Shown here: positions 12,091 through 42,111 of the stretch, one piece after another
Numbering within the stretch: position 1 is the first letter of the stretch
How the letters are laid out: each line of letters begins with the position of its first letter
Source of the DNA: an uncultured Candidatus Saccharibacteria bacterium
GTDB lineage: Bacteria; Patescibacteriota; Dojkabacteria; B142; OLB20
Reading direction: 5' to 3'
NCBI GenBank assembly: GCA_964461915.1
Contig: CAYWVD010000001.1
Span: forward strand, 565,911-629,910
DNA: 64,000 bases
Made by a program: the position numbers and the translations under genes
The notes under the pieces: model-generated
The model's input: the letters and a program-made list of their open reading frames with translations, nothing else
Databases searched by the model: none
What the model was told of the DNA's origin: nothing

Positions 12091-12381
12091 TTATTTATCT
12101 AAATTAATTAATAAAAATCTTAGAATATCATTCATTAACTTTAATTCTCCTTGGAATTTATCACTAAACTCTGGATCTAAGGTTAATTGATAAACTAAAT
12201 AATATCCCTCATCATGTTTTTTGATTGGATAGGCTAAATGCCTTTTTCCCCATGGGTCTAATTTTGTAATTTCGCCACCTGAGGTCTTAACTAGTTTTTC
12301 TAGTTTTTTTTGGATCCCGAAACGGATATCTTCTGGAAGAAGAGGCTTCAGAATGACCATTAATTCATATTTCTTTGTCAT
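12091..12381 (-). CDS. rpsF: 30S ribosomal protein S6
   Basis: MTKKYELMVILKP...GGEITKLDPWGKRHLAYPI. No poly-Glu C-terminal tail (ends ...INLDK). Confidence 0.9.
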   Translation of the reverse strand: MTKKYELMVILKPLLPEDIRFGIQKKLEKLVKTSGGEITKLDPWGKRHLAYPIKKHDEGYYLVYQLTLDPEFSDKFQGELKLMNDILRFLLINLDK

Positions 12382-27124: not shown

Positions 27125-28999
27125 TTAGATATTTGAGCAGTTACTTGAGAAGTTATTGTACAAACAATTTATAAATTTTTTCATAATTGGGACAGTTTTG
27201 TAACCTCTACCACCCCATTGTTGCATTACAGTAAAACAATAATTTTCATTTTCATAATCAAAACAACCCATAATCCAAGAATGGGCACCATCATAGTATG
27301 TCCCATTAATCCATTCTCCGGCATCAGAAGATCCAGTTTTTGCACCAGGATTTCCAGGCAAACCCTTCAACCCCCCAGCAGTACCAGCTTGTACACCAAG
27401 TTGAAGCCCCTCCTTTAAAATTCTGATCGTTTCATCACTTACATGCAAACTTCTTACTTGCTCAGGAGTTCTTTCAAACACCAAACTTCCAGTTTGATCG
27501 ACCACTTTTGAAAGTATATGCGGTTTGATTAATTCCCCATTATTCATAACAGTTGACACCAACATAGCCATCTGTAATGGAGTCACTGTTACATAACCCT
27601 GTCCAATCACAGTATTGCATTCATCTCCAATGTACCAAGGCTGTTTGACAGTAGCCATTTTATAATCAGCATTAGGTATAGTTCCAGCAACTTCACCCCA
27701 CAAGTCTATTCCGGTCTTGTTACCTAATCCGTAGTTTTTTGCAATATCGTAATAATATTCATATCCAATATTCTTCGCCCTCATATCCTGCATTACCAAA
27801 CAAAAGAAAATATTACTCGATCTGGCCATCGCCTCTTCTACATTTACCCATCCAATATAGCCCCTATCAGCTTCACAAAACTTAATATTTCCTGGCAAAT
27901 CAATACATCGATCGGATAATTTTTTTTCAGACTCAGAAATTACACCCGATTCCAATCCAGCAGTAGCCGCCACTATCTTCATAATTGATCCTGGAGGTAA
28001 TTGAAGAGAAATAGGCCTATTAAAAAGCGGTTTTTTAGGATCATTAATTAAACTTTGATAATCCCCATAACTAATCCCATTTGCGAATAGATTATTATCA
28101 TATCCAGGATTCGTTACCATTGCCTTCACCTCTCCAGTTCTACTATTAACAATTACTCCAGCCCCTCCAAAAGCCTTAACATTTGAGACACTTTTATTTA
28201 ATATCTCAGACAAAGATTTTTGCCATCTACTATCAATTGTAAGATATACATTATTGCCAGGTATTGATTGATAGGCATCATAGTCAATAAATTCACCCGA
28301 TACGACTTCTTTTTCAACAACCGATAACCCCTCTTTACCTCTTAGATAATTATCATAGTACCCCTCTATACCAGTTTTTCCTATTTGAGATTCAGAATAT
28401 ATACCAGATTCAATATCTTTTTGGGTAGGATCACCTAGATAGCCTATTACATTTGAAAAAGCAATCGGATCAGAATAGGTTCTTTTAGGTTCGACGATCA
28501 AATGAATCCCTTTAAGTTCTTCAATTCTACTTAAGAGTAAATAATATTGATCATAATTAATATCAGATTTTAAAGTAATTCTATCTGAGGCAATTCGATT
28601 CCCAGATTCATCATATATTTTGGACTTAGAATCAGTGATGAAAATTACATTATCGATATCTAGGATCTTTGCAATTAAAGTTAATACTTGATCTTCTTCT
28701 TCTTTTGATAATTCTTTGGAATTTAATGTCAGAGAATAACCGGGTGAATTGTATGCAAGTTTCATTCCATCAGAACTTAAAATTAGACCTCTAGGTGCTA
28801 AAGTCTTTACCTGATATTGATTTGTCCTTTTTGCGATTTGAAAACTTTGCTGCCCTTTAACAATCTGAAGTTCGAAAGCCCCGAACAGTAAATAAAGGAA
28901 AACTGCTACCAGCAATAAATAGATTAAGATAGTCCTCCATTGGAAATCATCGGTATCAATTTCGAATTTGATTTCAGTATTAGTATTCTTAAAATTCAT
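27125..28999 (-). CDS. mrdA: Penicillin-binding protein 2 (elongasome transpeptidase)
   Basis: N-terminal TM and transpeptidase motifs SxxK (PGSIMK), SSN and KTG (GAKTGSS). Sits in an mreBCD-mrdA cluster. Confidence 0.85.
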   Translation of the reverse strand: MNFKNTNTEIKFEIDTDDFQWRTILIYLLLVAVFLYLLFGAFELQIVKGQQSFQIAKRTNQYQVKTLAPRGLILSSDGMKLAYNSPGYSLTLNSKELSKEEEDQVLTLIAKILDIDNVIFITDSKSKIYDESGNRIASDRITLKSDINYDQYYLLLSRIEELKGIHLIVEPKRTYSDPIAFSNVIGYLGDPTQKDIESGIYSESQIGKTGIEGYYDNYLRGKEGLSVVEKEVVSGEFIDYDAYQSIPGNNVYLTIDSRWQKSLSEILNKSVSNVKAFGGAGVIVNSRTGEVKAMVTNPGYDNNLFANGISYGDYQSLINDPKKPLFNRPISLQLPPGSIMKIVAATAGLESGVISESEKKLSDRCIDLPGNIKFCEADRGYIGWVNVEEAMARSSNIFFCLVMQDMRAKNIGYEYYYDIAKNYGLGNKTGIDLWGEVAGTIPNADYKMATVKQPWYIGDECNTVIGQGYVTVTPLQMAMLVSTVMNNGELIKPHILSKVVDQTGSLVFERTPEQVRSLHVSDETIRILKEGLQLGVQAGTAGGLKGLPGNPGAKTGSSDAGEWINGTYYDGAHSWIMGCFDYENENYCFTVMQQWGGRGYKTVPIMKKFINCLYNNFSSNCSNI

Positions 29000-29001
29000 T
29001 A

Positions 29002-29475
29002 TTAAATGATGTACCTGTTGGGAATTATTTTATTAAAAATATTATATATTATTATGTATAAGATGAAATTTCCCAATATTGCCCCGAAATCGATATAACC
29101 CAATCCTGATCTATATATACCAGTAAATACTTGAATTAAAATTAGTACCAAAAGCAATATTAAAGAGATTTTAAAGTTAATATTTCTCTTTAGCAGCTTG
29201 ATTATTCCACTTAAAAGATTAATAAGAAGATAAATTGAAGAAAATAATAAAGCCCTTAATCCTAAAAAATTGAAATTAATAATTTCAAGGATCAAAGTAA
29301 AAAAAATAAAAAGAGCAAAAATAAAATTACTTCTCTCTCGTTTTTCTTGATAAACCAAACAAATAATAATTAAAGGCTCCAAATTATAAAAAAAATCTAT
29401 TCCAGAACTTTTAAGTATTACCTCTAAAAAGAATGTTAAAATTATAAAAAATATAATTCTATTATTTTTATTCAT
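29002..29475 (-). CDS. mreD: Rod shape-determining protein MreD (polytopic membrane protein)
   Basis: 157-aa hydrophobic multi-TM protein. Called by position between mreC and mrdA. Confidence 0.5.
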   Translation of the reverse strand: MNKNNRIIFFIILTFFLEVILKSSGIDFFYNLEPLIIICLVYQEKRERSNFIFALFIFFTLILEIINFNFLGLRALLFSSIYLLINLLSGIIKLLKRNINFKISLILLLVLILIQVFTGIYRSGLGYIDFGAILGNFILYIIIYNIFNKIIPNRYII

Positions 29476-29477
29476 TA

Positions 29478-30263
29478 TTAATTCTGAATTACAAAAACTT
29501 CGGTTAATTGATTTAAGGAAATTGCCGATTCTATTTGTACACGCTGGCTAATGTCAGTTTGATCGGAGAATGCTACTAAAGACTTTCCGACTAATAATCC
29601 ATACGGAGTTTGCGAATCCGCTCCCGAAGTTACAACATTACTTCCCTCAGAAAGGCTTATTGAATTGGGGATATCTACAACGCTTATCACTCGACTATCC
29701 GTACCCACAATAAAACCCCTAGCCCCGGTATCTGGGAATATAACTGGCACCCTGATATTTGGCGAGAACGGTAACTCAACTAATGCGGTTGAAGGATACG
29801 TTTTTGATACCCTACCAACAAAACAACCATCCTTAGTGACCGCAGAACCGATCTTCACATTATCATTATCCCCTTTATTAATCAGTATAATATTGCCAGT
29901 TTCCATATAAGTTAAGACTCTGGCAGGTATTGTTTTATATTCTTTATCAAAGCTGGATTGATCTAATATTTTCCGCAAAGATTCAAGTTCAAGCTTCAAG
30001 CGATCGTTTTCAACCTTATAAAATTCACTTTCATTTTTATAAGTCTCCAGACTATCTTTATTTCCCGCTAAATTTGCGAGAAACGAAAAATCATCTTTAA
30101 TACTTGAGAATATACTAAAGTTAGCAGACTGAATAGTTTCGAAAGACTCCGAAATAAAAGCATTTATTGAATTTAGAAGCCCTATTCTGCCAAAAAGAAT
30201 GATGACTACAGCAACTATAGTACCTAGAATTAAATCGGAATTTTTTAACCCCTTTTCATTCAT
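29478..30263 (-). CDS. mreC: Rod shape-determining protein MreC
   Basis: N-terminal TM, coiled coil (ENDRLKLELESLRKIL), beta-rich C-terminal domain. Adjacent to mreB. Confidence 0.7.
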   Translation of the reverse strand: MNEKGLKNSDLILGTIVAVVIILFGRIGLLNSINAFISESFETIQSANFSIFSSIKDDFSFLANLAGNKDSLETYKNESEFYKVENDRLKLELESLRKILDQSSFDKEYKTIPARVLTYMETGNIILINKGDNDNVKIGSAVTKDGCFVGRVSKTYPSTALVELPFSPNIRVPVIFPDTGARGFIVGTDSRVISVVDIPNSISLSEGSNVVTSGADSQTPYGLLVGKSLVAFSDQTDISQRVQIESAISLNQLTEVFVIQN

Positions 30264-30268
30264 ATAAT

Positions 30269-31357
30269 TTAAATGATCTCATCTTTGGATATTTGAATTC
30301 TCTCTAATAACTCAAGCTCTTCTAATAAAACCTCAGTTCCCCTGACTACAGCCTTTATAGGATCCTCAGTTATAATCACTGGAGTTTTCAATCTTTCTTC
30401 AAAGAATCGATCTATCCCATAAATTAATGCACCCCCTCCAGCAAGTACGATCCCCCTTTCTAATAGATCAGCAAGGATTTCTGGGGGTGTTTTTTCTAAG
30501 GCTCCTTTTACTGCATCTGAAATTTTTTCTAAGACTTTTAACATAGCTTCGCGTACTTCTATACTGGAAAGCTTTATCGTTCGCGGTAAACCGGTCAACA
30601 TATCACGACCTTTTACATCGAGCTCCTTTTCAGGCTTCATTGTTACTGCAGAACCAATCGCAATCTTAACATCCTCAGCCATTTTTGAACCTATTAGAAG
30701 ATTGTATTTATATTTAATGTAATTGAGAATCTCTTCGTCAAGCTCATTACCCCCGACCCTAATTGTATTATCAACAACTATTCCACCCAACGAAATTACG
30801 GCGATGTCAGTTGTTCCACCTCCAATATCTACAATCATACTTCCCGCAGCATCGTCTATCGGCAATCTTGAGCCAATTGCAGCAGCCATAGGCTCTTCGA
30901 TTATATATACTTTTCTGGCACCTGCAGAAACAGCAGCATCAATAACAGCCCTAGCTTCGACTTCGGTAATTGAGGAAGGTATCCCAATTACAACTCTAGG
31001 CTTTGTAAGCTTAAACATTTTTGGGTAATACTCGTATACCTTATAAATAAAGTACCTAATCATAGCCTCAGTGGAATCAAAATCAGAGATCACCCCATCT
31101 GCCATTGGTTTTACAGCCACGATATTAGCCGGGGTTCTTCCTATCATTCTTTTTGCATCCACACCAACAGCAAGCACTTTTTTTGTATTTTTATTAACAG
31201 CCACTACAGAAGGTTCATTTATCACAACCCCCTGCCCTCTTACAGATACAAGGGTCGTTGATGTACCCAAATCAATACCAATATCATGGGTAAATAGTGA
31301 TAAAAATTTATCAAAAGCCTGCATTTGGGATCGTGTTAAACTTCCTAATTGTAGCAC
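30269..31357 (-). CDS. mreB: Actin-like rod shape-determining protein MreB
   Basis: IGIDLGTSTTLVSVRGQGVVINEPSVVAV..., actin-fold phosphate motifs. Likely start at the M of MQAFDKF. Confidence 0.9.
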   Translation of the reverse strand: MLQLGSLTRSQMQAFDKFLSLFTHDIGIDLGTSTTLVSVRGQGVVINEPSVVAVNKNTKKVLAVGVDAKRMIGRTPANIVAVKPMADGVISDFDSTEAMIRYFIYKVYEYYPKMFKLTKPRVVIGIPSSITEVEARAVIDAAVSAGARKVYIIEEPMAAAIGSRLPIDDAAGSMIVDIGGGTTDIAVISLGGIVVDNTIRVGGNELDEEILNYIKYKYNLLIGSKMAEDVKIAIGSAVTMKPEKELDVKGRDMLTGLPRTIKLSSIEVREAMLKVLEKISDAVKGALEKTPPEILADLLERGIVLAGGGALIYGIDRFFEERLKTPVIITEDPIKAVVRGTEVLLEELELLERIQISKDEII

Positions 31358-31647
31358 TAGAATCGCAAAATTGTATAGCTAATTAGGGACTTTGAGGAAA
31401 TTGGAATTAATGGTAAATAATGCTATACTTTAACTGCCCTATCATGTAATTAGAATAAGATATATTGAACTTTACAAGCAATCTTAAGGGTAACCAAAAT
31501 CTCATTAACGCCATCGTGTTTTAATGCTGAGGTTACCAACTTTTTACTTGAACACGGTTTCAAGTACTTATTCGAAAGCCTGATAGGGTTTTTTTGCTTG
31601 ATTAATGTCAGGATATACTTTAAAATTGTTTGACTGTTTAGGGTTAG

Positions 31648-31723
31648 GCTGGAATAGCTCAGTTGGTAGAGCACACCCTTGGTAAGGGTGAGGTCAAGAG
31701 TTCGATCCTCTTTTCCAGCTCCA
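31648..31723 (+). tRNA. tRNA-Thr (anticodon GGT)
   Basis: Manually folded cloverleaf. Acceptor GCTGGAA/TTCCAGC, anticodon stem CACCC-TTGGTAA-GGGTG, T-loop TTCGATC, encoded CCA. Confidence 0.9.
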
Positions 31724-31755
31724 TTAATTGGGCAAAGAGTTATTTGAAAATTTTA

Positions 31756-31838
31756 GCAAGGGTGGCAGAGCGGTCAAATGCTCCAGACTGTAAATCTGGC
31801 GTCGAGAGACTACGGGGGTTCAAATCCCTCCCCTTGCA
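31756..31838 (+). tRNA. tRNA-Tyr (anticodon GTA), long variable arm
   Basis: Acceptor GCAAGGG/CCCTTGC, anticodon loop CTGTAAA, long variable arm, T-loop TTCAAAT. No encoded CCA. Confidence 0.9.
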
Positions 31839-31843
31839 AGATT

Positions 31844-31916
31844 GCCGAGATAGCTCAGTTGGTAGAGCAACGGTTTTGTAAACCGTCGGTCAAGAGTTCG
31901 AGCCTCTTTCTCGGCT
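31844..31916 (+). tRNA. tRNA-Thr (anticodon TGT)
   Basis: Acceptor GCCGAGA/TCTCGGC, anticodon stem ACGGT-TTTGTAA-ACCGT, T-loop TTCGAGC. Confidence 0.9.
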
Positions 31917-31960
31917 TATTAATTAAATAAAACTTAAATTTTATATTTATATAAATTGCT

Positions 31961-32128
31961 ATGGCAAAAAAGGGAAACCGTATTTTGATCAGGTTAAGAA
32001 ATAAAGAAACCGGATCTTTTTACACAACAAGCAAAAATAGAATCAATTCTAAAGATAAGTTAAAGATCAAGAAATTTGATCCAAAGCTTAAAAAGCATAT
32101 AGTATTTGATGAGGATAAGGTAAAATAA
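31961..32128 (+). CDS. rpmG: 50S ribosomal protein L33
   Basis: 55-aa ORF below the ORF-track cutoff. MAKKGNRILIRLRNKETGSFYTTSKNRINSKDKLKIKKFDPKLKKHIVFDEDKVK matches the L33 family (..G.FYTT.KN......KL...KFDP....H). Confidence 0.85.
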   Translation: MAKKGNRILIRLRNKETGSFYTTSKNRINSKDKLKIKKFDPKLKKHIVFDEDKVK

Positions 32129-32173
32129 GTATAGAGTTGCTTATAGGCTCTACCTCACCAAAGCGCGGAATGA

Positions 32174-32245
32174 AGAGCCATGGTGTCAGTGGTAGCACAG
32201 CGGTCTCCAAAACCGTTAGCAGAGGTTCGAATCCTCTTGGCTCTG
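32174..32245 (+). tRNA. tRNA-Trp (anticodon CCA)
   Basis: Acceptor AGAGCCA/TGGCTCT, anticodon stem GCGGT-CTCCAAA-ACCGT, T-loop TTCGAAT. Canonical position before secE. Confidence 0.9.
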
Positions 32246-32260
32246 TATTTTTTTAGGCCT

Positions 32261-32288
32261 TTAATTATCAAAGGTTTATTGGTATAAT
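32261..32288 (+). promoter_or_regulatory. Putative extended -10 promoter (TGgTATAAT) immediately upstream of secE
   Basis: TGGTATAAT at 32280-32288 sits only about 7 nt before the secE ATG at 32296. The -35 is weak (TTAATT). Confidence 0.3.
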
Positions 32289-32295
32289 TGAAAAC

Positions 32296-32505
32296 ATGAT
32301 TATTATTAAGACAATTAATAAATTTTTTAATTTTTTGAAGTCCGCTTTTGGCGAGTTGAAATTTGTTACTTTCCCGACAAGAGCAGAAACATTAAAATTA
32401 GGATCAATAGTCTTAGGAGTATCGACCGTCTTTGGATTAAGCCTCTACTTAATCGATTGGTTGTTTCAAGTCTTAAGAAACTTACTAACTAGTGTAAATA
32501 TTTAA
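32296..32505 (+). CDS. secE: Preprotein translocase subunit SecE
   Basis: 69 aa with a single C-terminal TM and KFFNFLKSAFGELKFVTFPTRAETL, characteristic of short SecE. Confidence 0.8.
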   Translation: MIIIKTINKFFNFLKSAFGELKFVTFPTRAETLKLGSIVLGVSTVFGLSLYLIDWLFQVLRNLLTSVNI

Positions 32506-32506
32506 A

Positions 32507-33073
32507 ATGAAAAAAGAACAAAAAAAACTAGAAGAAACAGCAGTAACCGACAATTTTAGTTGGTATGTTGTTAATGCCTATTCTGGCCATGAAAAACGAG
32601 TTGCAACACAAATACAACAAAGAACTAAAGCAAACAATCTAGAGGATATGATAAAAGAAGTATTAGTACCTACTCAAAATAAGATTGTTGTAAGCGAAGG
32701 AAAAAAAAGAACAGTTGAAGAAAAAACATTCCCAGGTTATGTTTTAGTCAAAATGATTATGAATGATCAAACATGGCAGATCATTAGAAATACAGAAGGA
32801 GTTACAGGATTTGTCGGAACAGAAAGAAAACCTACACCATTAAACCCAGATGAAGTAAAAAGTATTCTAGCTTACATGAAGGTAGAACAACCATCCTATC
32901 AAGCCTCTTTTGCGGTCGGCGATGCCGTCAAAGTTACGGATGGACCTTTTAAAGATTTCGTTGGATCTATCTCTGAGATTAACGAAGATAAAGGTCAAGT
33001 TAAAGTTCTACTTTCAGTGTTTGGTCGCGAAACACCAGTAATATTAGACTTCTTAAAAATTACTCGATTATAA
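32507..33073 (+). CDS. nusG: Transcription termination/antitermination factor NusG
   Basis: NGN domain (WYVVNAYSGHEKRV) and KOW motif (FAVGDAVKVTDGPFKDFVGSISEI). Confidence 0.9.
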   Translation: MKKEQKKLEETAVTDNFSWYVVNAYSGHEKRVATQIQQRTKANNLEDMIKEVLVPTQNKIVVSEGKKRTVEEKTFPGYVLVKMIMNDQTWQIIRNTEGVTGFVGTERKPTPLNPDEVKSILAYMKVEQPSYQASFAVGDAVKVTDGPFKDFVGSISEINEDKGQVKVLLSVFGRETPVILDFLKITRL

Positions 33074-33091
33074 ATTTAAACAATATTAATT

Positions 33092-33523
33092 ATGGCTAAA
33101 GAAAAAAAAATCAAAGCTATTTTAAAGCTTGCGATTGAAGCAGGAAAAGCTACACCAGCCCCTCCAATCGGTCCAGCACTTGGACAACACGGTGTCAATA
33201 TTCAAGAATTTGTTACACAATATAATGACAAAACTAGAGATAAAATGGGTGATGTTATCCCATGTATATTAACAATTTTCGAAGATAGAACTTTTACAAT
33301 TGAATTAAAGACTCCACCAGTAACTAATCTATTATTGAAATCAGTAGGTCTTAAAAAGGGCTCTGCTAAACCAAACTTGGTTAAGGTTGGTAAGGTAACT
33401 AGGGCTCAAATTAAAGAAATTGCCGAAAAGAAAATGGCAGACATCAATGCAATAAGCATGGAATCCGCTATGAAAATCGTCGAAGGTTCGGCAAAAAGCT
33501 TGGGCTTAACTGTTGTTGATTAA
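33092..33523 (+). CDS. rplK: 50S ribosomal protein L11
   Basis: AGKATPAPPIGPALGQHGVNIQEF is the L11 signature. Confidence 0.9.
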   Translation: MAKEKKIKAILKLAIEAGKATPAPPIGPALGQHGVNIQEFVTQYNDKTRDKMGDVIPCILTIFEDRTFTIELKTPPVTNLLLKSVGLKKGSAKPNLVKVGKVTRAQIKEIAEKKMADINAISMESAMKIVEGSAKSLGLTVVD

Positions 33524-33538
33524 TTTGTTATAACTATT

Positions 33539-34222
33539 TTGATGAAAAGATCTAAAAAATACCAATCAGCTTTGTCAAACATTGATAAAGCTAAAAAATA
33601 CTCCCCTACTGACGCCTTAAATTTAATGCCAAAGTTATCTTTAACAAAATTTGCCGGTAGTATAAGTATTCAATTGTTTTTAAATTTAAATGAAAAACAA
33701 AAAAAGGATTCAATTAGAGGATCCTACACATTGCCAAACACTTTTGGAAAATCTTTAAAAGTGTTAGCAGTTGTAGATAAATCTGAGATTGAAAAGGCAA
33801 AAGATGCAGATATAGTTGGAGGCGAAGAAATATTTAAAGATATTGAAGCAGGAAAGCTTGAATTCGACTTGGTTATAACAACTCCAATGATGATGGGTAA
33901 ATTAGCTAGATTAGGGAAAACTCTTGGATCAAAAGGCCTAATGCCAAATCCTAAGAATGGAACCATTACTACAAATTTGAGTGAAAGCATTAAAAAATTC
34001 AAACAAGGAATGAAGAACTTCAAATCAATTAATGGAGCTCCAATTACTGCAGTTATTGGGAAATCTGATATGACAGCAGAACAATTGCAAGGAAATTTAG
34101 ATGCATTTGTTAAAGCTGTTATAAATGAGACTAAGAAGTATTCATCAACTCCTATCAAAAGAGCTATTTTGACTACTACAATGGGTCCAAAAGTTGAATT
34201 AGATGCTTCATATTTAGTTTAA
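33539..34222 (+). CDS. rplA: 50S ribosomal protein L1
   Basis: L1 fold motifs (RGSYTLPNTFGKSLKVLAV, LMPNPKNGTIT). Confidence 0.9.
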   Translation: MMKRSKKYQSALSNIDKAKKYSPTDALNLMPKLSLTKFAGSISIQLFLNLNEKQKKDSIRGSYTLPNTFGKSLKVLAVVDKSEIEKAKDADIVGGEEIFKDIEAGKLEFDLVITTPMMMGKLARLGKTLGSKGLMPNPKNGTITTNLSESIKKFKQGMKNFKSINGAPITAVIGKSDMTAEQLQGNLDAFVKAVINETKKYSSTPIKRAILTTTMGPKVELDASYLV

Positions 34223-34229
34223 TTTAAAA

Positions 34230-34258
34230 TTGACAAAAGAATAGTATTGGGTTAGAAT
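34230..34258 (+). promoter_or_regulatory. Near-consensus sigma70 promoter for rplJL (TTGACA-17-TAGAAT)
   Basis: TTGACA at 34230-34235, a 17-nt spacer, TAGAAT at 34253-34258. Lies between rplA and rplJ, as in other bacteria. Confidence 0.5.
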
Positions 34259-34264
34259 TACTAA

Positions 34265-34395
34265 GTTTTCGTTTAAGACAATAGGCTTTCATTTATTTGA
34301 AATAAGACCTATCGAGACGGATACAGATAAAATCATAAATTATGTATTTATACTGTGCCGACTCGTTCGGCACATTTTTTTTATTTAATTTAACA
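34265..34395 (+). promoter_or_regulatory. rplJ (L10) 5' leader with intrinsic attenuator hairpin
   Basis: About 130-nt untranslated leader before the rplJ ATG. It contains a perfect 8-bp GC-containing hairpin plus U8, detailed in the next feature. Confidence 0.45.
34354..34382 (+). terminator. Intrinsic terminator/attenuator inside the L10 leader
   Basis: TGTGCCGA-CTCGT-TCGGCACA followed by TTTTTTTT. Located 14 nt upstream of the rplJ start. Confidence 0.5.
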
Positions 34396-34923
34396 ATGTC
34401 AAAAACCAAAAATCAAAAAAAGGAGTTGATGACTGAATACGCTGAAAAGTTAAAGGCACAACCAAACTTTTTCGTGGTAAAACCTCTCGGGATTAATCCT
34501 AACGAGGCTACTGCTATGAAAAAGGAATTGGGAGCACTTGGCTCCAGCTATAATTTAGTCAAAAATACTATTTTTGTGATTGCTATGAAGGAAGCTGGTT
34601 TTCCACTAACTGAGCTTGGAGATGGACAACATTCAATTGTCTTCTCAAGTGACAAGATTAGCGAAACTGCAAAAATAATTAGCAAATTCACAAAAGCAAA
34701 AGACAAAGATCGTCTTGAGGTAATTGGAGGCGTATATAATATGACCGCCATTACAGCAGCAGAGGTAAAAGCTCTAGCAGATCTACCAAGCAAGGATGTT
34801 TTGATTGCTCAACTATTAAGCGTAATGGTTGGTCCAGTCAGAAATTTCATGTATGTTTTGAAAGGAAATATGCAAGAATTTGTATATTTACTCAACTCTA
34901 TTCAAGAGAAAAAAGCTGTTTAA
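34396..34923 (+). CDS. rplJ: 50S ribosomal protein L10
   Basis: The ORF opens at 34342, but the L10 N-terminus corresponds to MSKTKNQKKELMTEYAEKLK at 34396. Confidence 0.9.
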   Translation: MSKTKNQKKELMTEYAEKLKAQPNFFVVKPLGINPNEATAMKKELGALGSSYNLVKNTIFVIAMKEAGFPLTELGDGQHSIVFSSDKISETAKIISKFTKAKDKDRLEVIGGVYNMTAITAAEVKALADLPSKDVLIAQLLSVMVGPVRNFMYVLKGNMQEFVYLLNSIQEKKAV

Positions 34924-34968
34924 ACAGCTTTAATTTAATTTTAATTTAATTTATTTATATTAACTAAA

Positions 34969-35367
34969 ATGGCAGACGATAAAAAAATCGAATTAACTGG
35001 TGATTCTGCAAAAATCGCAGAAATGCTAGAAAAAATGACAGCATTAGAACTTTCTCAATTAGTCAAAGCACTAGAAGAAAAGTTCGGTGTCTCAGCAAAT
35101 GCTCCTGTTGCAGTAGCAGCAGCTCCAGCAGCCGCAGCAGCTCCAGCAGAAGAAAAATCTTCATTCAATGTTGAATTAACAGAAGCTGGTGCAAACAAGA
35201 TTGCAGTCATCAAAGTAGTCAAAAATGCAACAGGTTTAGGCTTAAAAGAAGCCAAAGACTTAGTTGATGGTGCTCCAAAGACTGTCAAAGAAGACATGAA
35301 AAAGGAAGATGCAGAAGCTTTAAAGAAAGAATTAGAAGAAGCTGGTGCAAAAGTAACCCTAAAATAA
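34969..35367 (+). CDS. rplL: 50S ribosomal protein L7/L12
   Basis: Ala-rich hinge ([16 protein letters not shown]) and CTD ([29 protein letters not shown]). Confidence 0.9.
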
Positions 35368-35398
35368 TACGTAGTTACAACTTCACATCAATAATTAA

Positions 35399-35430
35399 AC
35401 CCTCCCCTATTTGTGGGAGGGTTTTGTTTT
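35399..35430 (+). terminator. Rho-independent terminator after rplL
   Basis: ACCCTCCC-CTATTTGT-GGGAGGGT followed by TTTGTTTT. Confidence 0.7.
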
Positions 35431-35474
35431 ATTAAGTGTTAGGATATAATATTTTTTAATTAAAAAAGTAAAAG

Positions 35475-36155
35475 ATGATAGATATTTTTATCAATAGCGG
35501 ACTAGATAAGGGAGCAATAGTTACTTTGTTATTACTCCCAATAGTCGTGACTTTAATCGCATTTTCAAGGCATATTTTGGGCATGCGGTCATTAGGAATT
35601 TATTTATCATTTGTTATTACTTTTATCTTTTTTCAACTTGGTGTTACTTCCAATGATTTTCCCTATTATTCAGATCCATTGGTTGGATTTAAGTTTGGAC
35701 TTCCATTAATAATTGTCGTTTTTTCGGCTACTTTATTGTGTTATGTTTTAATCAAGAAAATTGGCCTGCATTATTATCCCAAATTGGCCATAGTAGCCAC
35801 TGGAGTAACTGCTATTCTAATTGGTGTAACCATGATCTTTGGATTATTGGGATTTAAAAATTTTTTAAAAATTGATATTTTCACTTTAGTTTTAATAGTT
35901 GCCATTACTGAAAAATATTTTTCAATACTCGCTAGAAAAAACCTAAAAACTACTATATTCATCACTATTGAAAGTATAATTTTAGCTGGAATTAGCTATT
36001 TGATTATTTCAATTCATCCACTTATCGATCTATTGCTTCAATATCCTTATATCATTCTAGTCCTCTTCCCTATTAATTATTTGATCGGTAAATTTACAGG
36101 ACTAAGATTGAGTGAATATTTACGATTCTGGGACATCTTAACTGAGAAAAATTAA
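35475..36155 (+). CDS. Polytopic (about 7-TM) membrane protein, partner of the ATP-grasp/protease gene (7TM_transglut-like)
   Basis: 226 aa with about seven hydrophobic helices and no soluble domain. TATAAT at 35445-35450 between the rplL terminator and the ATG. The downstream gene starts 6 nt after its stop. Confidence 0.5.
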   Translation: MIDIFINSGLDKGAIVTLLLLPIVVTLIAFSRHILGMRSLGIYLSFVITFIFFQLGVTSNDFPYYSDPLVGFKFGLPLIIVVFSATLLCYVLIKKIGLHYYPKLAIVATGVTAILIGVTMIFGLLGFKNFLKIDIFTLVLIVAITEKYFSILARKNLKTTIFITIESIILAGISYLIISIHPLIDLLLQYPYIILVLFPINYLIGKFTGLRLSEYLRFWDILTEKN

Positions 36156-36160
36156 CAGAA

Positions 36161-37579
36161 ATGTTTAAAACTCTAGCACTAATTCAAAAAAACAGACGAA
36201 AAGTCCTTGGGATGAATGAAAGGAACCTAGACTATATTCGGAAGTTAAATAAAAGTAAGAATATTGAAATAGCAGACAATAAAATTTTGACAAAAGAAGT
36301 CTTAATGAAGGCTGGCATTCCTACTCCTAAGCTAATTACTGTAATAAAATCTTATCAAGAATTAAATAATTTTGACTTCTCTACCCTACCAGCATCTTTT
36401 GTTCTAAAGCCTGTTACAGGGCTTGAAGGCGGTGGCATTGATCTGTTTTATAACCAAGATAAAAATGGTGCATGGATTAGAGCTGATAAATCAAAAGTAA
36501 CAATCGATCAATTAAAAAAACAAATTGCTGATATTCTTGATGGAAAATATTCACTAAACCAAACACCGGACTTTGCCTTATTCGAGGAAAGGATCAAAAC
36601 ACATAAAGTTTTTAAGTACTATACATATAAAGGGACTCCCGATATTAGAATAATCACAATTAATGGAGTTCCTGCAATGGCATTTTTAAGGATTCCTACC
36701 AAAGAATCTATGGGTAAAGCAAATCTTGCACTTGGAGCAGTAGCAACCGGTATTGATATAGCAAATGGCGTTACTACATTTGCTATTCAAGGTAAACATG
36801 GTTATATACAAAATGTTCCAGGCTCAAAAATTTCCTTAAGCGGTCTAAAAATTCCCTACTGGGATAGGATATTGAGATATTCTATTGAAGCTCAAAAAGC
36901 TTCTGGATTAAATTATCTTGCTGTAGATTTTTTAATTGATAGAGACCAAGGACCAGTTATTGTCGAACTCAATGCGAGGCCAGGACTATCAATTCAACTT
37001 GCAAATAAAGACGGATTAAGATGGAGAATTAAAAAGACAAGGGATATTAAAGTCCCCTCAGTTGAAAAAGGTATGAAATTGGCTAAATATCTTTTTGGGG
37101 GTGAAATTGAAAATGAAATTGAAAGTATTTCCGGTAAAGATGTTATTGGAATATATGAAAATATAAGTTTAATTAATCCTAAGGGCGAAGAGATAAAAAC
37201 CATAGCCAAAATCGACACTGGGGCCGATTCTACTTCAATAGATAGAAAATATGCTTATGAGCTAGGTTTTAAGGATATTGTCAAAGAATTTGACGATTTA
37301 AATTTACCAGTTAATATTGAGAGAAATAAGGGTATCGCCCTAATGAAAGAGCTAAGTGAACGATTTGTACCTAAATACCCTGACAAACTAGTGGACGTTT
37401 CATTTATTAAATCCAGCCATGGAACAACACTTAGGCCTTGTGTAAAAATTATGTTGAAAATTAAGGATACTACTTTTGAAACAAATGCCAATATTCTTGA
37501 TAGAAGCAATTTAACATACTCTGTGATCGTTGGAAGGAAGTCATTATTAAGATTTTTAATTGACCCCTCGAAAAAGTAA
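36161..37579 (+). CDS. RimK-like alpha-L-glutamate-ligase-type ATP-grasp enzyme fused to a DTGA retropepsin-like aspartic protease domain
   Basis: N-terminal half has LGMNERNLDYI, ATP-grasp glycine-rich loop VLKPVTGLEGGGIDLF and AVDFLIDRDQGPVIVELNARPGLS. C-terminal about 140 aa has IAKIDTGADSTSIDRKYAYELG (the DTGA motif of clan AA retropepsin-like proteases). Confidence 0.7.
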   Translation: MFKTLALIQKNRRKVLGMNERNLDYIRKLNKSKNIEIADNKILTKEVLMKAGIPTPKLITVIKSYQELNNFDFSTLPASFVLKPVTGLEGGGIDLFYNQDKNGAWIRADKSKVTIDQLKKQIADILDGKYSLNQTPDFALFEERIKTHKVFKYYTYKGTPDIRIITINGVPAMAFLRIPTKESMGKANLALGAVATGIDIANGVTTFAIQGKHGYIQNVPGSKISLSGLKIPYWDRILRYSIEAQKASGLNYLAVDFLIDRDQGPVIVELNARPGLSIQLANKDGLRWRIKKTRDIKVPSVEKGMKLAKYLFGGEIENEIESISGKDVIGIYENISLINPKGEEIKTIAKIDTGADSTSIDRKYAYELGFKDIVKEFDDLNLPVNIERNKGIALMKELSERFVPKYPDKLVDVSFIKSSHGTTLRPCVKIMLKIKDTTFETNANILDRSNLTYSVIVGRKSLLRFLIDPSKK

Positions 37580-37592
37580 GAAGCATTTATAA

Positions 37593-38591
37593 TTACTTCA
37601 TTAATATTCTCTGAATATTTTCAATATTGTTAAGGGCATACATTATCCCTTTAATTACCGCCCATTCGGGCTCTTCGACAACATGGAAAGAAACTCCAAT
37701 TGCTTTAGTAAATAAGTCATCAATATTTCTAAGTTTTACAGTACCTCCAGTCAATACTATACCTCTATCAATAATATCGGAAGATAATTCGGGAGGAGTC
37801 CTTTCTAGTACCTCCTTAATTGAATTGATCATCTCATTTAAAACCGGTCTGAACCCGTCTACAATATCATTGGTACTAAGTTCTATAGTGGTAGGCATAC
37901 CTGTTGTGCCATCTCGGCCACGGATCTCCATATTTAAAGGCTCCTCCATCGGCAATGCTGAACCGATTTCGATTTTGATTTTTTCGGCCATTTGTTCTCC
38001 TATCACAAGCCCAGTTTTTTTACGAATAAAGGCCACCAAAGATTCATTCAAAGCATCCCCTGCCAATCTTTTTGATTCGAAAGTTACAATTCCATTTAAA
38101 GATAAAACTGCAATTTCACAGGTCCCTCCACCAATGCTAACTATCATGTTCCCTGAGGAAGAACCAATAGGAAGATTGGCTCCAATTGCGGCGGCAATGG
38201 GTTCTGGTATTAGATAAACCTTACCGGCTCCAGCCTGAACTGAAGCTTCGATAACAGCCCTTTCTTCTACTGATGTGATACCAGCTGGTACACTAATCAT
38301 CACCTCTGGCTTGAAGAATCGCACTCTACCTAGAACCTTTTCCATCAAATGAGTAATTATCATTTCAGTTAGCTTGTAACTTGCTATCACTCCTTGCCGA
38401 ATGGGTAATCTGGCTTCAATATCCACAGGAACTTTACCCAACATTCCCTTTGCTTCAGCTCCGATTGCTACGACTTTTTTGTCTTTTGTGGAAATTGCTA
38501 CAACTGTTGGTTCTGAATAGATAATATTTTTACCAACAATTGCGATCACAGAGTTAGATGTACCAAGATCAAGGCCGACTTTAGTAGGCAT
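37593..38591 (-). CDS. Second actin-like MreB paralog (solitary)
   Basis: VGLDLGTSNSVIAIVGKNIIYSEPTVVAI... Full-length MreB-type actin fold, 332 aa. Not next to mreCD. Confidence 0.8.
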   Translation of the reverse strand: MPTKVGLDLGTSNSVIAIVGKNIIYSEPTVVAISTKDKKVVAIGAEAKGMLGKVPVDIEARLPIRQGVIASYKLTEMIITHLMEKVLGRVRFFKPEVMISVPAGITSVEERAVIEASVQAGAGKVYLIPEPIAAAIGANLPIGSSSGNMIVSIGGGTCEIAVLSLNGIVTFESKRLAGDALNESLVAFIRKKTGLVIGEQMAEKIKIEIGSALPMEEPLNMEIRGRDGTTGMPTTIELSTNDIVDGFRPVLNEMINSIKEVLERTPPELSSDIIDRGIVLTGGTVKLRNIDDLFTKAIGVSFHVVEEPEWAVIKGIMYALNNIENIQRILMK

Positions 38592-38645
38592 TTTTAAATT
38601 GAACTAATATTAAACAATTGATATACTTCAAAGTATAGTACTCGT

Positions 38646-40112
38646 ATGAGAAAACACAAAATAAAAACAAGTCTATATCTCTTTATTGCTTCGATATTCG
38701 TATTCGTAGCTACTGCTATTGCGATTATTATATCACAAGGCGGTTCGGTTACAGAAACAGGCGTTCAAACCAATATGGGTGTTTTAAGAATTAATATTTA
38801 CCCGGAAAATACTAATTATTCTCTTTATGTAGATGATGTAGCTGTCGAAAACATTATTAACAAGGGTGTTAATTTACCATCTGGCATTAAAGATATTAGG
38901 ATTGAATCTGTTGGAATGAATTCTTGGAAGAAGAAGGTCGAAATTCAGGAAGGAATTGTTAAAGATATATTTGTTAAGCTCTTCCCTACAGAATTAAAAC
39001 TAGAACAAGTAACCAATACAAATGTTTCTAAAATGGTATTTTCTCAAAATGGTGATTATCTATTCTACACCGTAGAAAACAATCCCATTCTAACTGAAAA
39101 TGGTATTTGGAGGCTTCAAATTGAAAATAATAACTTGTTCATCTTTAATACTAATCAAAACTTAATCAAATTTGCAGAACTTAATGATGAATTAAAGCTA
39201 ATGCTAAATGATGAAAAGGTCTCATTAATACCCAGTCCCGACAATAACAAAATGCTTGTAATTTCTCCTCTGAATCAAAAAATAACCTTATTAAATAATG
39301 CTTTAGGGAATGAGGCATTGAAATCGATTGATATAGTAAACTTATTGGGATTTTTTCCAGAATCAATAGACTGGTTAAATGATTCAATTAGTATGGTTGT
39401 TAAGGACAAGACTACTCTTTTTGAATATAATTTAACAAATAATAAAACGACATTAATCAAATATTCCCAAAAAGCAAGTTTGGTATACGGCCATAATGAA
39501 GCTCAGCTTATCTGGTTTGATCCAATTGGAAAATCTTTAAATATTTATAAAAACGAATCAAATCAAGGAATAATTTTCCCTAATGATGTAATTTTTAATA
39601 ACATTTCTCAAATATATTTACCAGAAAAATCTTCAAGATATGCACTAATATCAGACTCTAATGAATTTCTATTTATTGATCTAGAGAAAAAGACTGTACA
39701 AAAAACGGGTCTAGCATCAGATTCAAACGAATTATTTAGCATTAGCCCCGATGCAACAACATATTTATTTAAAACTGTTTCGGGTGGTATTATTTCACTT
39801 GTTGCAAGAGAAAATATTGCATTACAAAAAATTGAGATGAATTTATATAATTTCGAAGATCCTCAGGTAGTTAATGATAAAATCGCTTTCACTCCTAAAG
39901 ATTCAACTATTCTAACCTATTCCGATTCTTTAAAATCAATTTTCTCTTCTGACCAAGATGGTACTAATAAAAATTTGATAATAAATAATGAGAATATTAA
40001 ACCATTTTTCAACACCGATTCTAGACTTGAAAATTTGTATTTGTTAATGAATGATGGCCAGGAGGAATTATCCAATGCAAACATCTATAAGATTAATCTA
40101 TTACTCGATTAA
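38646..40112 (+). CDS. Membrane-anchored protein with PEGA-like domain and predicted beta-propeller (TolB-like) region
   Basis: N-terminal TM. PEGA-like beta-sandwich segment (LRINIYPENTNYSLYVDDVAV...GIKDIRIESVGMNSWKK). The remainder is beta-rich repeats. Confidence 0.4.
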   Translation: MRKHKIKTSLYLFIASIFVFVATAIAIIISQGGSVTETGVQTNMGVLRINIYPENTNYSLYVDDVAVENIINKGVNLPSGIKDIRIESVGMNSWKKKVEIQEGIVKDIFVKLFPTELKLEQVTNTNVSKMVFSQNGDYLFYTVENNPILTENGIWRLQIENNNLFIFNTNQNLIKFAELNDELKLMLNDEKVSLIPSPDNNKMLVISPLNQKITLLNNALGNEALKSIDIVNLLGFFPESIDWLNDSISMVVKDKTTLFEYNLTNNKTTLIKYSQKASLVYGHNEAQLIWFDPIGKSLNIYKNESNQGIIFPNDVIFNNISQIYLPEKSSRYALISDSNEFLFIDLEKKTVQKTGLASDSNELFSISPDATTYLFKTVSGGIISLVARENIALQKIEMNLYNFEDPQVVNDKIAFTPKDSTILTYSDSLKSIFSSDQDGTNKNLIINNENIKPFFNTDSRLENLYLLMNDGQEELSNANIYKINLLLD

Positions 40113-40135
40113 TGATATAATCAAAGAGATTTAAT

Positions 40136-40212
40136 GCACTAGTAGCTCAGACGGATAGAGCGAGGCACTCCTAACGCCTAGGCCAGAGGTTCGACTCCTC
40201 TCTAGTGCACCA
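40136..40212 (+). tRNA. tRNA-Arg (anticodon CCT)
   Basis: Acceptor GCACTAG/CTAGTGC, anticodon loop CTCCTAA, T-loop TTCGACT, encoded CCA. Confidence 0.85.
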
Positions 40213-40250
40213 TTTAATGAAAATAATCCCCTTTTATTTACGAATCTGTT

Positions 40251-40850
40251 TTATTTAGCTAAGCGCCCTTTGACGCCGCTAAAGTGGGCTGATAATACAT
40301 CGTAATCAAAAAGCTCCTGATTACCAAACCAAAGAGCAATTTCTTCTTTGGCTTCGGCAACTTCCCCTGATGCGTGCATTATATTGTAAAGTGGTCTCTT
40401 TTGTTCGTTTGCAAATTCTACACTGTCTGTTCCGAAGTCACCTCTTATCGTCCCTGGGACTGCGATGGCGGGTATAGTATCTCCAGCGAGCTTTCTACCA
40501 ACCATGACAGCATTTGGACCTTCAAAAACCATTGCCATTACTGGACCAAAGTTAAGGTATTCTACTAACCATTTTTTGATTAGTTTCCCAATTTCAATTG
40601 CATCAGATGTACCAAGAAGCATATTAGAATCTAACCCTCTTTCGGTATATTCTTTTAAAGTTCTTTCTCCAACTTTTGTGAACCACTTCTCGGTCACTGG
40701 ATAATGACTATCGCCCATATCTTGGGTTGATTGGATCAATTCCATTGCTACTATTTTTAAACCAACTCGTTCAAATCGAGCAATAACTTCACCAATAAGA
40801 CCTCTAGCGACTCCATCATGTTTTACTATTATTAAGGTTTTTTCGGACAT
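40251..40850 (-). CDS. ndk: Nucleoside diphosphate kinase, long form with about 45-aa insertion
   Basis: IVKHDGVARGLIGEVIARFE, catalytic His context NIMHASGEVAEAKEEIALWF, TIRGDFG. Confidence 0.8.
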   Translation of the reverse strand: MSEKTLIIVKHDGVARGLIGEVIARFERVGLKIVAMELIQSTQDMGDSHYPVTEKWFTKVGERTLKEYTERGLDSNMLLGTSDAIEIGKLIKKWLVEYLNFGPVMAMVFEGPNAVMVGRKLAGDTIPAIAVPGTIRGDFGTDSVEFANEQKRPLYNIMHASGEVAEAKEEIALWFGNQELFDYDVLSAHFSGVKGRLAK

Positions 40851-40873
40851 TTTAATAAATTTAGAAAAATAAT

Positions 40874-41476
40874 TTAAATCATTCCAATATAATCTACCCG
40901 CTTATAATCTCCAAGGTATTTAAACTTGTCGCCAAACCAATGTTTAATTTCTCTGTCAGCCTCTTCTTTTGAATCTGATCTATGAACAAGTGTTTTAAAA
41001 ACTATTCGGCCAGATTTTACGGCCATTTTGGGAGTATCGAATCCATAATCCCCCCTAACTGAACCAATATCGGCAGTCAAAGGATTAGTTTCACCCATTA
41101 ATTTTGCAATGATATCTACTGCATTGTTACCCTCCCAAACACTTATTATTACCGGTCCTTCTGTTAAATAATCAACTAAAGATTTGTAAACTATTTTCCC
41201 AATTTCTAATAAATCTGTAGTCCCGAGGTCTTCTAATAAGGCTTTTTCGTCTCCTTTATAGTTTGTAAAAGTCTTTTCTCCCATTTTGTATAGCCATTGA
41301 TCGGTTCCTGGATAGTTCCCTTTTGCCTGTTCTCTTGTAGCCCAAATCATTCTTGTGGCAACTACTTTTAATCCCATTCTCTCAACCCTTTTAAAAATAT
41401 CTCCTACAAGTCCCCTTTTTACGCCGTCAGGCTTTATCATTAAAAATGTTTGCTCTATAGAATCAATTTTTTTCAT
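40874..41476 (-). CDS. ndk: Nucleoside diphosphate kinase paralog, long form with the same insertion
   Basis: FLMIKPDGVKRGLVGDIFKRVE, SVRGDYG, LVHRSDSKEEADREIKHWF. Confidence 0.8.
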   Translation of the reverse strand: MKKIDSIEQTFLMIKPDGVKRGLVGDIFKRVERMGLKVVATRMIWATREQAKGNYPGTDQWLYKMGEKTFTNYKGDEKALLEDLGTTDLLEIGKIVYKSLVDYLTEGPVIISVWEGNNAVDIIAKLMGETNPLTADIGSVRGDYGFDTPKMAVKSGRIVFKTLVHRSDSKEEADREIKHWFGDKFKYLGDYKRVDYIGMI

Positions 41477-42111
41477 AATTTTTTAATAATTTTAAATTCA
41501 ATTAATTTTTTAATAATATTTTCTTTAACTTCATCGATTGTGCCATTTCCGTCTACTATAATCCATTTACCAAAAATATTATTCTTAGCTAAATAATGAA
41601 AGCTCTCACGAATTTTATGTTGTTTTTCGAGATCTCTTTCATTAATATCCAACCCCTCATTGTGGCCTTCCTCCTTGGATTTCCGCTTTAATGCGATTTC
41701 TGGTAATACATCAATGTAGATATTATAATCCGCTTCATTAATTTTAAAAGCTTTAGCAAAATTTATCGCTTCTTTAAAATCAATACTATTTTTCACTAGG
41801 CAATTGTACACAATGTTTGTTGTAAAATAGCCATCACAAAGGAAGAAACTCTTCTTAGAACCTTTAGCTAATTTTATTTTGTCTTGTAATAATAACTGAT
41901 CAAGAGCAAAGCTAATAAATAAACTCTCTGGAGATAATTTAATCTTTTCTAATAAATACGGCTTAATGTACTCTTTGTATAAACATCCTTGATGATCGGG
42001 AAATTCCATGCTCTCAACTTGAATATCTTTGAGAGTCTTCAAATATTCGGTAAGCTCTATACGCTGGCGACCTTTGCCAGCTCCGTCTATGCCTTCTAGG
42101 ACTAAAAACAT
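41473..42111 (-). CDS. tmk: Thymidylate kinase
   Basis: P-loop FLVLEGIDGAGKGRQ. dTMP kinase length. 4-nt overlap with the downstream ndk. Confidence 0.85.
   Translation of the reverse strand: MFLVLEGIDGAGKGRQRIELTEYLKTLKDIQVESMEFPDHQGCLYKEYIKPYLLEKIKLSPESLFISFALDQLLLQDKIKLAKGSKKSFFLCDGYFTTNIVYNCLVKNSIDFKEAINFAKAFKINEADYNIYIDVLPEIALKRKSKEEGHNEGLDINERDLEKQHKIRESFHYLAKNNIFGKWIIVDGNGTIDEVKENIIKKLIEFKIIKKL

Follow-up and report, generated by a model that had tools for sequence, protein, structure and literature searches.

A two-gene unit of Dojkabacteria and other Patescibacteria as a candidate compact form of the Rlo ligase/peptidase system

Introduction

In the genome of an uncultured bacterium that is deposited as Candidatus Saccharibacteria and placed by GTDB among the Dojkabacteria (assembly GCA_964461915.1), the genes for ribosomal proteins L11, L1, L10 and L7/L12 are followed by two genes that encode a seven-transmembrane (7TM) protein (gene 1) and an ATP-grasp ligase fused to a retropepsin-like protease (gene 2), and the question arises as to what such a pair might build, cut or modify at the membrane. 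We addressed it within a window of 64,000 nucleotides (contig CAYWVD010000001.1, positions 565,911 to 629,910 of the forward strand), the whole stretch of DNA analysed here, starting from an earlier reading of the sequence alone, hereafter the original prediction. With moderate confidence, and by analogy with better known relatives, we favour the view that the pair is a compact, rearranged ligase/peptidase module of the Rlo type, in which a membrane-docked ligase would build acidic chains and its own dimerising protease would trim them.

The system to which this view refers, RloABC, is a stress-tolerance operon of Pseudomonas aeruginosa and P. fluorescens (Lormand et al. 2025, mBio, PMC12239564). 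The original prediction had likened the pair to a trio of ligase, protease and 7TM protein known from comparative genomics as a forecast; the three modules are indeed present, and what was then a predicted trio has since become a named and partly characterised system (PMC12239564).

Results

A soluble ligase fused to a retropepsin-like protease

Both open reading frames (ORFs) have the boundaries and lengths first proposed for them, are read in the same direction and are 5 nt apart (Table 1), and the motifs quoted at that time (LGMNERNLDYI, KPVTGLEGGGIDLF, IVELNARPGLS and KIDTGADSTSID) all occur in the translation of gene 2. That gene 2 combines an ATP-grasp domain with a DTGA retropepsin domain was borne out by profile searches, in which each half exceeds its Pfam cutoff: PF14397 (ATPgrasp_ST) covers residues 21-293 at 5.8e-63 (213.1 bits, cutoff 31.4) and PF05618 (Zn_protease/DUF785) is matched at 6.3e-7 (29.8 bits, cutoff 27), with a further match to Pfam RimK at 3.8e-11. 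The best NCBIfam match is TIGR02291, the 'alpha-L-glutamate ligase-like' family (1e-75, 254.7 bits, positions 8-291 of 317), and the protease half is met by RloA3 at 9e-7, the RloA1-3 models scoring 22-29 bits against cutoffs of 210-280. Database annotations of orthologues are no more than generic, such as 'sugar-transfer associated ATP-grasp' and 'ATP-dependent zinc protease', or wrong, as with 'S6--L-glutamate ligase'.

The AlphaFold model of the whole gene 2 product, computed with 67 orthologues, agrees with the two folded domains that had been anticipated (mean predicted local distance difference test score, pLDDT, 87.6; predicted template modelling score, pTM, 0.64) and connects them through a helix plus a short stretch of disordered acidic sequence. 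The closest folds of the ATP-grasp domain in the PDB are ArgX/LysX, RimK and cyanophycin synthetase (CphA1), enzymes that all extend a carboxylate with an amino acid. A fold search with the whole model gave ATP-grasp matches only, so the C-terminal domain was modelled separately (pLDDT 95.2); all 50 of the PDB matches listed for it by Foldseek are retropepsin-like, headed by the RloA structures 9g58 and 9g59 together with the Legionella DUF785 protein 2pma and followed by Ddi1, HIV-1 protease and the Rickettsia retropepsin. A profile of the retropepsin family run against the PDB sequences led to the same relatives (RloA 9g58, 1.1e-10; RloA2 9g59, 7.5e-10; 2pma, 1.1e-8; Ddi1, 1e-3). The domain differs from its solved relatives by a helical insert of about 40 residues (residues 362-402).

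Both catalytic centres are conserved in the gene 2 family. K83, D256 and E269 of the ATP-grasp domain occur in every one of 78 orthologues, N271 and R273 in 77, and the DTGA motif of the protease in 71; as far as residue conservation tells, both activities are under selection. Three basic residues of the retropepsin domain are shared by most of these orthologues (K350 by 72, R425 by 72 and R448 by 75), and we infer that they are the equivalents of K46, R114 and R137 of RloA: K350 precedes the catalytic Asp by two residues, as K46 does, and the two RloA arginines are aligned with R425 and R448, at the identical spacing of 23 residues. In RloA these three residues contact a polyglutamate peptide and are required for activity (PMC12239564). 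Since the stretches cut by RloA and RimB contain about eight or more consecutive Glu (PMC12239564; PMC11957791) and the basic residues are retained, an acidic substrate is likely for the fusion as well. A conserved Cys pair was not found in the alignment of the retropepsin family, and the active protease would probably be an Asp-Asp homodimer formed by the retropepsin domains of two fusion proteins.

The fusion protein is soluble: its maximal Kyte-Doolittle value is 1.34, and it has neither a hydrophobic window of transmembrane type nor a signal peptide. Because the retropepsin domain is fused behind an ATP-dependent soluble enzyme devoid of signal peptide and transmembrane segment, it must act in the cytoplasm. 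The cell surface, suggested in the original prediction as the site of a possible target, thus becomes unlikely at the moment of modification.

A 7TM protein reduced to its membrane module

Gene 1 was said to encode about seven transmembrane helices and no soluble domain, and this is what the sequence holds: seven hydrophobic segments and a match to 7TM_transglut (PF14402; 6.5e-14, 52.5 bits, cutoff 25, profile positions 58-246 of 248) as the sole domain. The NCBIfam RloB model is matched over positions 316-506 of 508 only, at 38.9 bits against a cutoff of 900. What gene 1 has in common with RloB-type proteins is the 7TM module alone; the inactive transglutaminase domain is missing. Since all 82 clusters of homologues found with gene 1 as query (140-231 aa, the shortest of which appear truncated on contigs of about 1 kb) carry PF14402 only, the transglutaminase-less form appears from these sequences to be the rule in this group. 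With 10 Lys and Arg in the odd loops and the tail and 3 in the even loops, the predicted topology has the N-terminus outside and the C-terminus inside and obeys the positive-inside rule. In the alignment, the conserved cytoplasmic elements are R32..G36, E146-K147 and the tail G(K/R)(W/F)TGLRLSEYxRF, beyond whose RF motif the C-terminus is not conserved.

An obligate pair in several lineages of the Candidate Phyla Radiation

A search of 5.8 billion proteins returned 2996 matches to gene 2 at E<=1e-5; the best 120 of these are 446-494 aa long, 54-100% identical to the query over 91-100% of its length, and come from Dojkabacteria or WS6 wherever a name is given. A scan for loci with one genome per GTDB species returned 80, distributed over Dojkabacteria, Moranbacteria, Woesebacteria, Roizmanbacteria, Paceibacteria and other Parcubacteria, that is, over the Candidate Phyla Radiation (CPR, Patescibacteria). 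Record titles such as 'Gammaproteobacteria', 'Bdellovibrionales' and 'Saccharibacteria' stand on contigs with neighbourhoods of Woesebacteria/Roizmanbacteria, Moranbacteria or Dojkabacteria type (L042, L048, L056, L070, L076 and many others), a clash that probably reflects mislabelled metagenome-assembled genomes.

The survey of gene neighbourhoods upheld the association on which the original prediction was built, as in 78 of the 80 loci the 7TM gene is the direct upstream neighbour of the fusion gene and the remaining two have less than 110 nt of upstream sequence. The pairing of 7TM protein and fusion is obligate. Complete 7TM ORFs are 213-254 aa long, and overlap with the fusion gene is frequent; with ORFs taken from their first start, the spacing runs from about -107 to +101 nt.

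Could the fusion be a product of assembly or of a frameshift, or the pair belong to something else altogether, such as a defence system or a maturation cassette for ribosomally synthesised and post-translationally modified peptides? We regard the probability of any of these as negligible. An identical gene 2 protein is found on three independent contigs, hundreds of orthologues are full-length, and orthologues of the same length recur through the 80 loci, by which an artefactual origin is refuted; the original claim of a genuine fusion stands, and on sequence grounds the fusion is both real and ancient. PADLOC gave no defence-system hits, no small precursor ORF fits the gaps of 107, 5 and 13 nt upstream of, within and downstream of the pair, and the G+C content of the pair is that of its surroundings.

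Exchange of the peptidase and the acidic linker

The natural variants of the fusion are instructive with respect to the relation between its two halves. Three Dojkabacteria orthologues (L045, L049 and L082; Table 1) have a retropepsin motif decayed to LIDTSRRT, without the SSHG hairpin, and carry an appended MATCAP domain (PF08014) with an HExxH motif, which looks like the exchange of a retropepsin for a MATCAP peptidase. Other representatives have the ATP-grasp and retropepsin domains followed by MATCAP, YdjC or a second ATP-grasp domain. On a metagenomic contig (L083) the retropepsin domain of the fusion is dead and an intact retropepsin is encoded separately just behind it, an arrangement that would permit a heterodimer of an inactive and an active retropepsin. 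Because the proteins that gained MATCAP have lost DTGA, and because L083 provides a separate retropepsin gene, these variants suggest that a peptidase of one fold or another has to accompany the ligase.

The two domains are joined by an acidic linker with the family consensus LFGGEIEEEIExISGK, strongly conserved and rich in Glu, in which G313 and G314 are invariant in the 78 orthologues and E315, E317 and E321 are kept in 72, 74 and 70 of them; residues 315-318 within it are the sole segment of gene 2 with a pLDDT below 50. Given that the protease family favours Glu-rich sequences, it is tempting to ask whether the retropepsin cuts its own polypeptide here in the manner of retroviruses, freeing ligase and protease, or whether the linker is an autoinhibitory pseudosubstrate. 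The L083 protein, in which the linker has decayed along with the fused domain (to FGNLQEVAHE), would fit such a scheme. We nonetheless consider it improbable, since RimB and RloA require about eight contiguous Glu and the longest Glu run in the linker never exceeds three, and since the MATCAP variants, with their dead retropepsin domain, still have part of the motif. Self-cleavage or autoinhibition could in any case coexist with the Rlo-type reading that we favour.

Accessory genes of related loci and a possible link to the envelope

The description of the pair as a stand-alone unit is valid for the source genome and does not extend to its relatives: in 42 related loci one to three RimK-like ligases go with it, as a rule directly downstream, and several of these loci add a Mur-ligase-like gene, a DUF3541 gene or a 600-aa HExxH protein without Pfam hit. 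The larger accessory cluster resembles parts of cyanophycin and polyglutamate synthetases. None of these accessory genes (RimK-like, Mur-ligase-like, HExxH or DUF3541) is present in the 64-kb window.

An alternative that deserves to be weighed at this point is a role in an envelope pathway, in which the ligase would decorate a membrane-bound precursor or polymer, be it a lipid-linked glycan, the stem peptide of peptidoglycan or a polyamino acid destined for secretion; the 7TM protein would present or flip this molecule, and the protease would edit its decoration before export. The accessory RimK-like and Mur-ligase-like genes speak for it, as do the Pfam description of PF14397 as 'sugar-transfer associated', the presence of penicillin-binding protein 1a close by in Moranbacteria-type loci, the position of the pair in the window among mreB, mreC, the gene for penicillin-binding protein 2 (PBP2) and a second mreB, and the hypo-osmotic lysis, beta-lactam sensitivity and shape defects of Pseudomonas rlo mutants. 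Against this, the neighbouring envelope genes are convergent with the pair or separated from it by other genes and vary between lineages, so that the linkage is weak; the accessory ligases are not in the window; and the protease family is so far known to cut alpha-polyglutamate only. We therefore hold an envelope function to be the most serious competitor of the Rlo-type module, if a rather unlikely one.

Position behind the ribosomal protein genes

In all 37 Dojkabacteria-type genome loci retrieved the pair comes after the genes for L33, SecE, NusG, L11, L1, L10 and L7/L12. The original prediction spoke of an insertion at the place where rpoBC follows rplL. As to rpoB and rpoC, neither lies near rplL, since the longest ORF of the whole 64-kb window has 878 aa; the idea of an insertion has to be abandoned. 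Because the synteny holds in all 37 loci and the G+C content of the pair (0.29-0.34) lies inside the local range (0.27-0.42), the order rplL-pair is ancestral to the Dojkabacteria-type lineage and no insertion took place in the source genome; recent insertion or horizontal transfer was rejected on the same two grounds.

It was also claimed that a terminator and a promoter set the pair apart from rplKAJL. The terminator part holds, in that a terminator-like, G+C-rich hairpin directly after rplL (stem of 10 bp including 6 G-C pairs, loop of 8 nt) is followed by TGTTTTATT, its tail reading TGTTTTATTA. As for the promoter, the hexamer TATAAT can be read directly in the sequence and is weak evidence for a -10 element; an acceptable -35 partner was not found for it and the promoter scan made no call there. 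A hairpin with a T-run, of unrelated sequence from one locus to another, occupies the spacer between rplL and the 7TM gene in 27 of 39 loci, which indicates that the pair forms a separate or attenuated transcription unit.

The proximity to rplKAJL would be explained if the fusion had the classical function of RimK and RimB, polyglutamylating and trimming ribosomal protein bS6 or another ribosomal protein. The constant place of the pair behind the L7/L12 gene in Dojkabacteria-type loci and the name of one orthologue record ('Ribosomal protein S6--L-glutamate ligase') are what can be said for this reading, and we judge it highly improbable in view of what follows. The bS6 protein of this genome (Pfam Ribosomal_S6, 9e-27) ends in ...RFLLINLDK and has no acidic tail, as had been predicted, nor does it have a Glu-Glu acceptor; L7/L12 ends in ...KVTLK. 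Gene 2 scores below the NCBIfam cutoffs of the RimK family TIGR00768 (73.1 bits against 143.4), of the S6-ligase model PRK10446 (15.8 against 331) and of RimB (18.9 against 200). Moreover, a terminator-like hairpin separates rplL from the pair in most loci, the pair is not beside ribosomal genes in the other CPR lineages, and nothing in the Rim system corresponds to the obligate 7TM partner. The acceptor of the ligase is not bS6.

Table 1. Coordinates of the features discussed in the text (positions refer to the window unless a locus handle precedes them)
Feature	Positions	Strand	Description
Gene 1	35475-36155	+	226 aa; RloB-like 7TM protein
Gene 2	36161-37579	+	472 aa; ATP-grasp ligase fused to retropepsin domain
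RloC-type ATP-grasp amino-acid ligase domain	36161-37045	+	gene 2 residues 1-295
Acidic inter-domain linker	37094-37138	+	FGGEIENEIESISGK; gene 2 residues 312-326
RimB/RloA-type retropepsin-like aspartic peptidase domain	37139-37579	+	gene 2 residues 327-472 and stop
Catalytic motif D352-T-G-A355	37214-37225	+	gene 2 retropepsin domain
Terminator-like hairpin	35397-35424, T-run to 35434	+	directly after rplL; sets rplKAJL apart from the pair
TATAAT hexamer	35445-35450	+	possible -10 element of the pair; weak evidence
bS6 gene	12091-12381	-	Pfam Ribosomal_S6
tRNA genes (three in a row)	31648-31916		between mreB and rpmG
tRNA gene (one)	32174-32245		between rpmG and secE
tRNA gene (one)	40136-40209		after the 488-aa gene
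MATCAP variants	L045:5995-8337; L049:5980-8316; L082:723-3164		three Dojkabacteria orthologues, 779-814 aa
Fusion with dead retropepsin domain	L083:118-1978		metagenomic contig; 456-aa fusion (LLDTSLVS), 4 nt on an intact stand-alone 161-aa retropepsin gene
Loci with accessory ligases, examples	L006:5362-6225; L015:7408-9679; L021:8421-9377; L060:7447-9276

Surroundings of the pair in the window

The region is flanked by two MreB paralogues, one in the stretch 27125-31357 and one in the stretch 37593-40112. The mreB gene at 30269-31357 (-) is accompanied by mreC, by an ORF of 157 aa without Pfam hit and by a PBP2-type transpeptidase. The other (37593-38591, -) converges on gene 2, ending 13 nt past its end, and is divergent from the gene of a 488-aa protein with an N-terminal hydrophobic segment and no Pfam hit; this protein adjoins an mreB of the 37593-38591 type in 16 related loci. 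Farther on (40251-42111, -) lie two tandem genes of about 200 aa, about 40% identical and nucleoside-diphosphate-kinase-like by eye. A thymidylate-kinase-like gene comes next, and all three are found again in related Dojkabacteria loci. An Rfam scan of 28000-42000 found tRNAs only. Five tRNA genes are listed in Table 1; the mechanical ORFs listed at 31450-31930 overlap the first tRNA cluster and are probably spurious.

Discussion

How, then, might a soluble ligase/protease and a bare 7TM protein work together? In the Rlo-type module that we favour, the fusion protein would dock on the cytoplasmic loops of the 7TM protein, through R32..G36 and E146-K147, and on its C-terminal GLRLSEYxRF helix. 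At the expense of ATP, the ATP-grasp domain would then extend a carboxylate acceptor by one L-glutamate (or other acidic residue) after another, much as RimK does, and the product would be an alpha-linked acidic chain, probably of alpha-glutamate, at the inner face of the membrane. Two fusion protomers would join their retropepsin domains into an obligatory Asp-Asp dimer, and this dimer would cut the growing chain and so set its length and turnover, in parallel with RimB acting with RimK and with RloA acting on the product of RloB and RloC. The 7TM protein would serve as membrane anchor and possibly also as regulator or conduit. Two lines of published work stand behind such a scheme. RimK makes poly-alpha-Glu, and RimB both stimulates RimK and trims its products (PMC11957791). 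In P. aeruginosa, the loss of RloA is harmful only when RloB and RloC are present, and because deletion of rloB or rloC rescues cells that lack the protease, the ligase and the 7TM protein make what the protease removes.

Several points weigh against this interpretation. Analogy with relatives is the source for the amino acid added, for its linkage and for the acceptor, and among the window ORFs of at least 60 aa none has a run of at least five Asp or Glu, or an acidic C-terminus, that would offer itself as acceptor. The score with TIGR02291 stays below the cutoff of 314.2 bits, so that orthology to RloC is uncertain, and the Pfam label of PF14397 leaves room for a glycan or uronic-acid acceptor. 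DTGA is missing in 7 of the 78 orthologues, and an obvious replacement peptidase is seen in three of these only. The structural model is that of a monomer (pTM 0.64) and is silent on dimerisation and on contact with the 7TM protein. Finally, the protease is periplasmic in Pseudomonas and cytoplasmic here, which may point to a different division of labour rather than to the same pathway.

A more speculative extension, which we regard as doubtful, would make of the pair a minimal machine for tailing and de-tailing. Here the 7TM protein would sense the osmotic state or that of the envelope and decide whether a single polypeptide adds acidic residues to a cytoplasmic acceptor close to the membrane or takes them off again. 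This acceptor could be the conserved cytoplasmic tail of the 7TM protein itself; such a machine would be a bacterial counterpart, widespread in the reduced genomes of the CPR, of tubulin tyrosine ligase and MATCAP. If this were true, the Rlo substrate would be made and first handled on the cytoplasmic side.

Whatever the acceptor, the pair has persisted in several CPR lineages whose genomes are very small, both of its active sites are apparently under selection, and the peptidase has been exchanged naturally, which suggests that the pairing of ligase and peptidase is functionally essential to these bacteria. With two proteins only, and with ligase and protease forced into one compartment, the CPR version has the pathway begin on the cytoplasmic side of the membrane; this small, two-protein, single-compartment form constrains where Rlo chemistry starts and could be reconstituted in vitro.

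Comparison with known systems

We found no published description of an ATP-grasp/retropepsin fusion or of its distribution in the CPR, in a literature search that did not cover Iyer et al. 2009 on fusions; a paper on CDC123 and ATP-grasp proteins contained nothing that bears on the pair. A natural and active single chain of related composition is the RimBK hybrid of Desulfotalea psychrophila (Little et al. 2025, J Biol Chem, PMC11957791), and RimK and RimB resemble the pair in that both work in the cytoplasm, RimK as an ATP-grasp Glu ligase and RimB as a retropepsin-like endopeptidase by which poly-Glu is trimmed and RimK stimulated. In RimBK, however, the RimB domain is N-terminal and a true RimK C-terminal (PMC11957791), whereas the CPR fusion has the reverse order (ligase 1-295, protease 327-472) and its ligase belongs to the PF14397/TIGR02291 branch. 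Furthermore, RimK acts on bS6 and has no membrane partner, while the CPR pair always includes the 7TM protein and the bS6 encoded in the window has no acceptor tail.

In eukaryotes, tubulin tyrosine ligase and MATCAP form a couple in which an ATP-grasp ligase adds C-terminal residues and a peptidase removes them. The three Dojkabacteria relatives that fuse the ligase to a MATCAP-family (PF08014) domain recall this couple by analogy only, and the protein of the window has no MATCAP domain.

The closest system is RloABC, with which the CPR pair shares the same three modules, encoded together (an ATP-grasp of RloC type, a 7TM protein of RloB type and a DTGA retropepsin of RloA type), as well as the conserved Lys and Arg residues by which RloA contacts polyglutamate. 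Yet ligase and protease are one cytoplasmic polypeptide in the CPR, whereas RloA is secreted with a signal peptide and has a disulfide; the CPR 7TM protein is devoid of the periplasmic inactive transglutaminase domain of RloB; and the CPR retropepsin domain carries its helical insert of about 40 residues. The order of the modules in the CPR is B and then C-A, to be set beside A, B and C as the naming order of the Pseudomonas operon. The hosts differ too, as 96% of RloB hits are in Proteobacteria (PMC12239564). Two defining features of RloABC, the secreted protease and the transglutaminase domain on the 7TM protein, are absent from the CPR pair, and its match to a third, the ligase family TIGR02291, lies under the cutoff; the two-gene operon of the CPR is best read as a stripped-down, rearranged version of the Rlo system of Pseudomonas.

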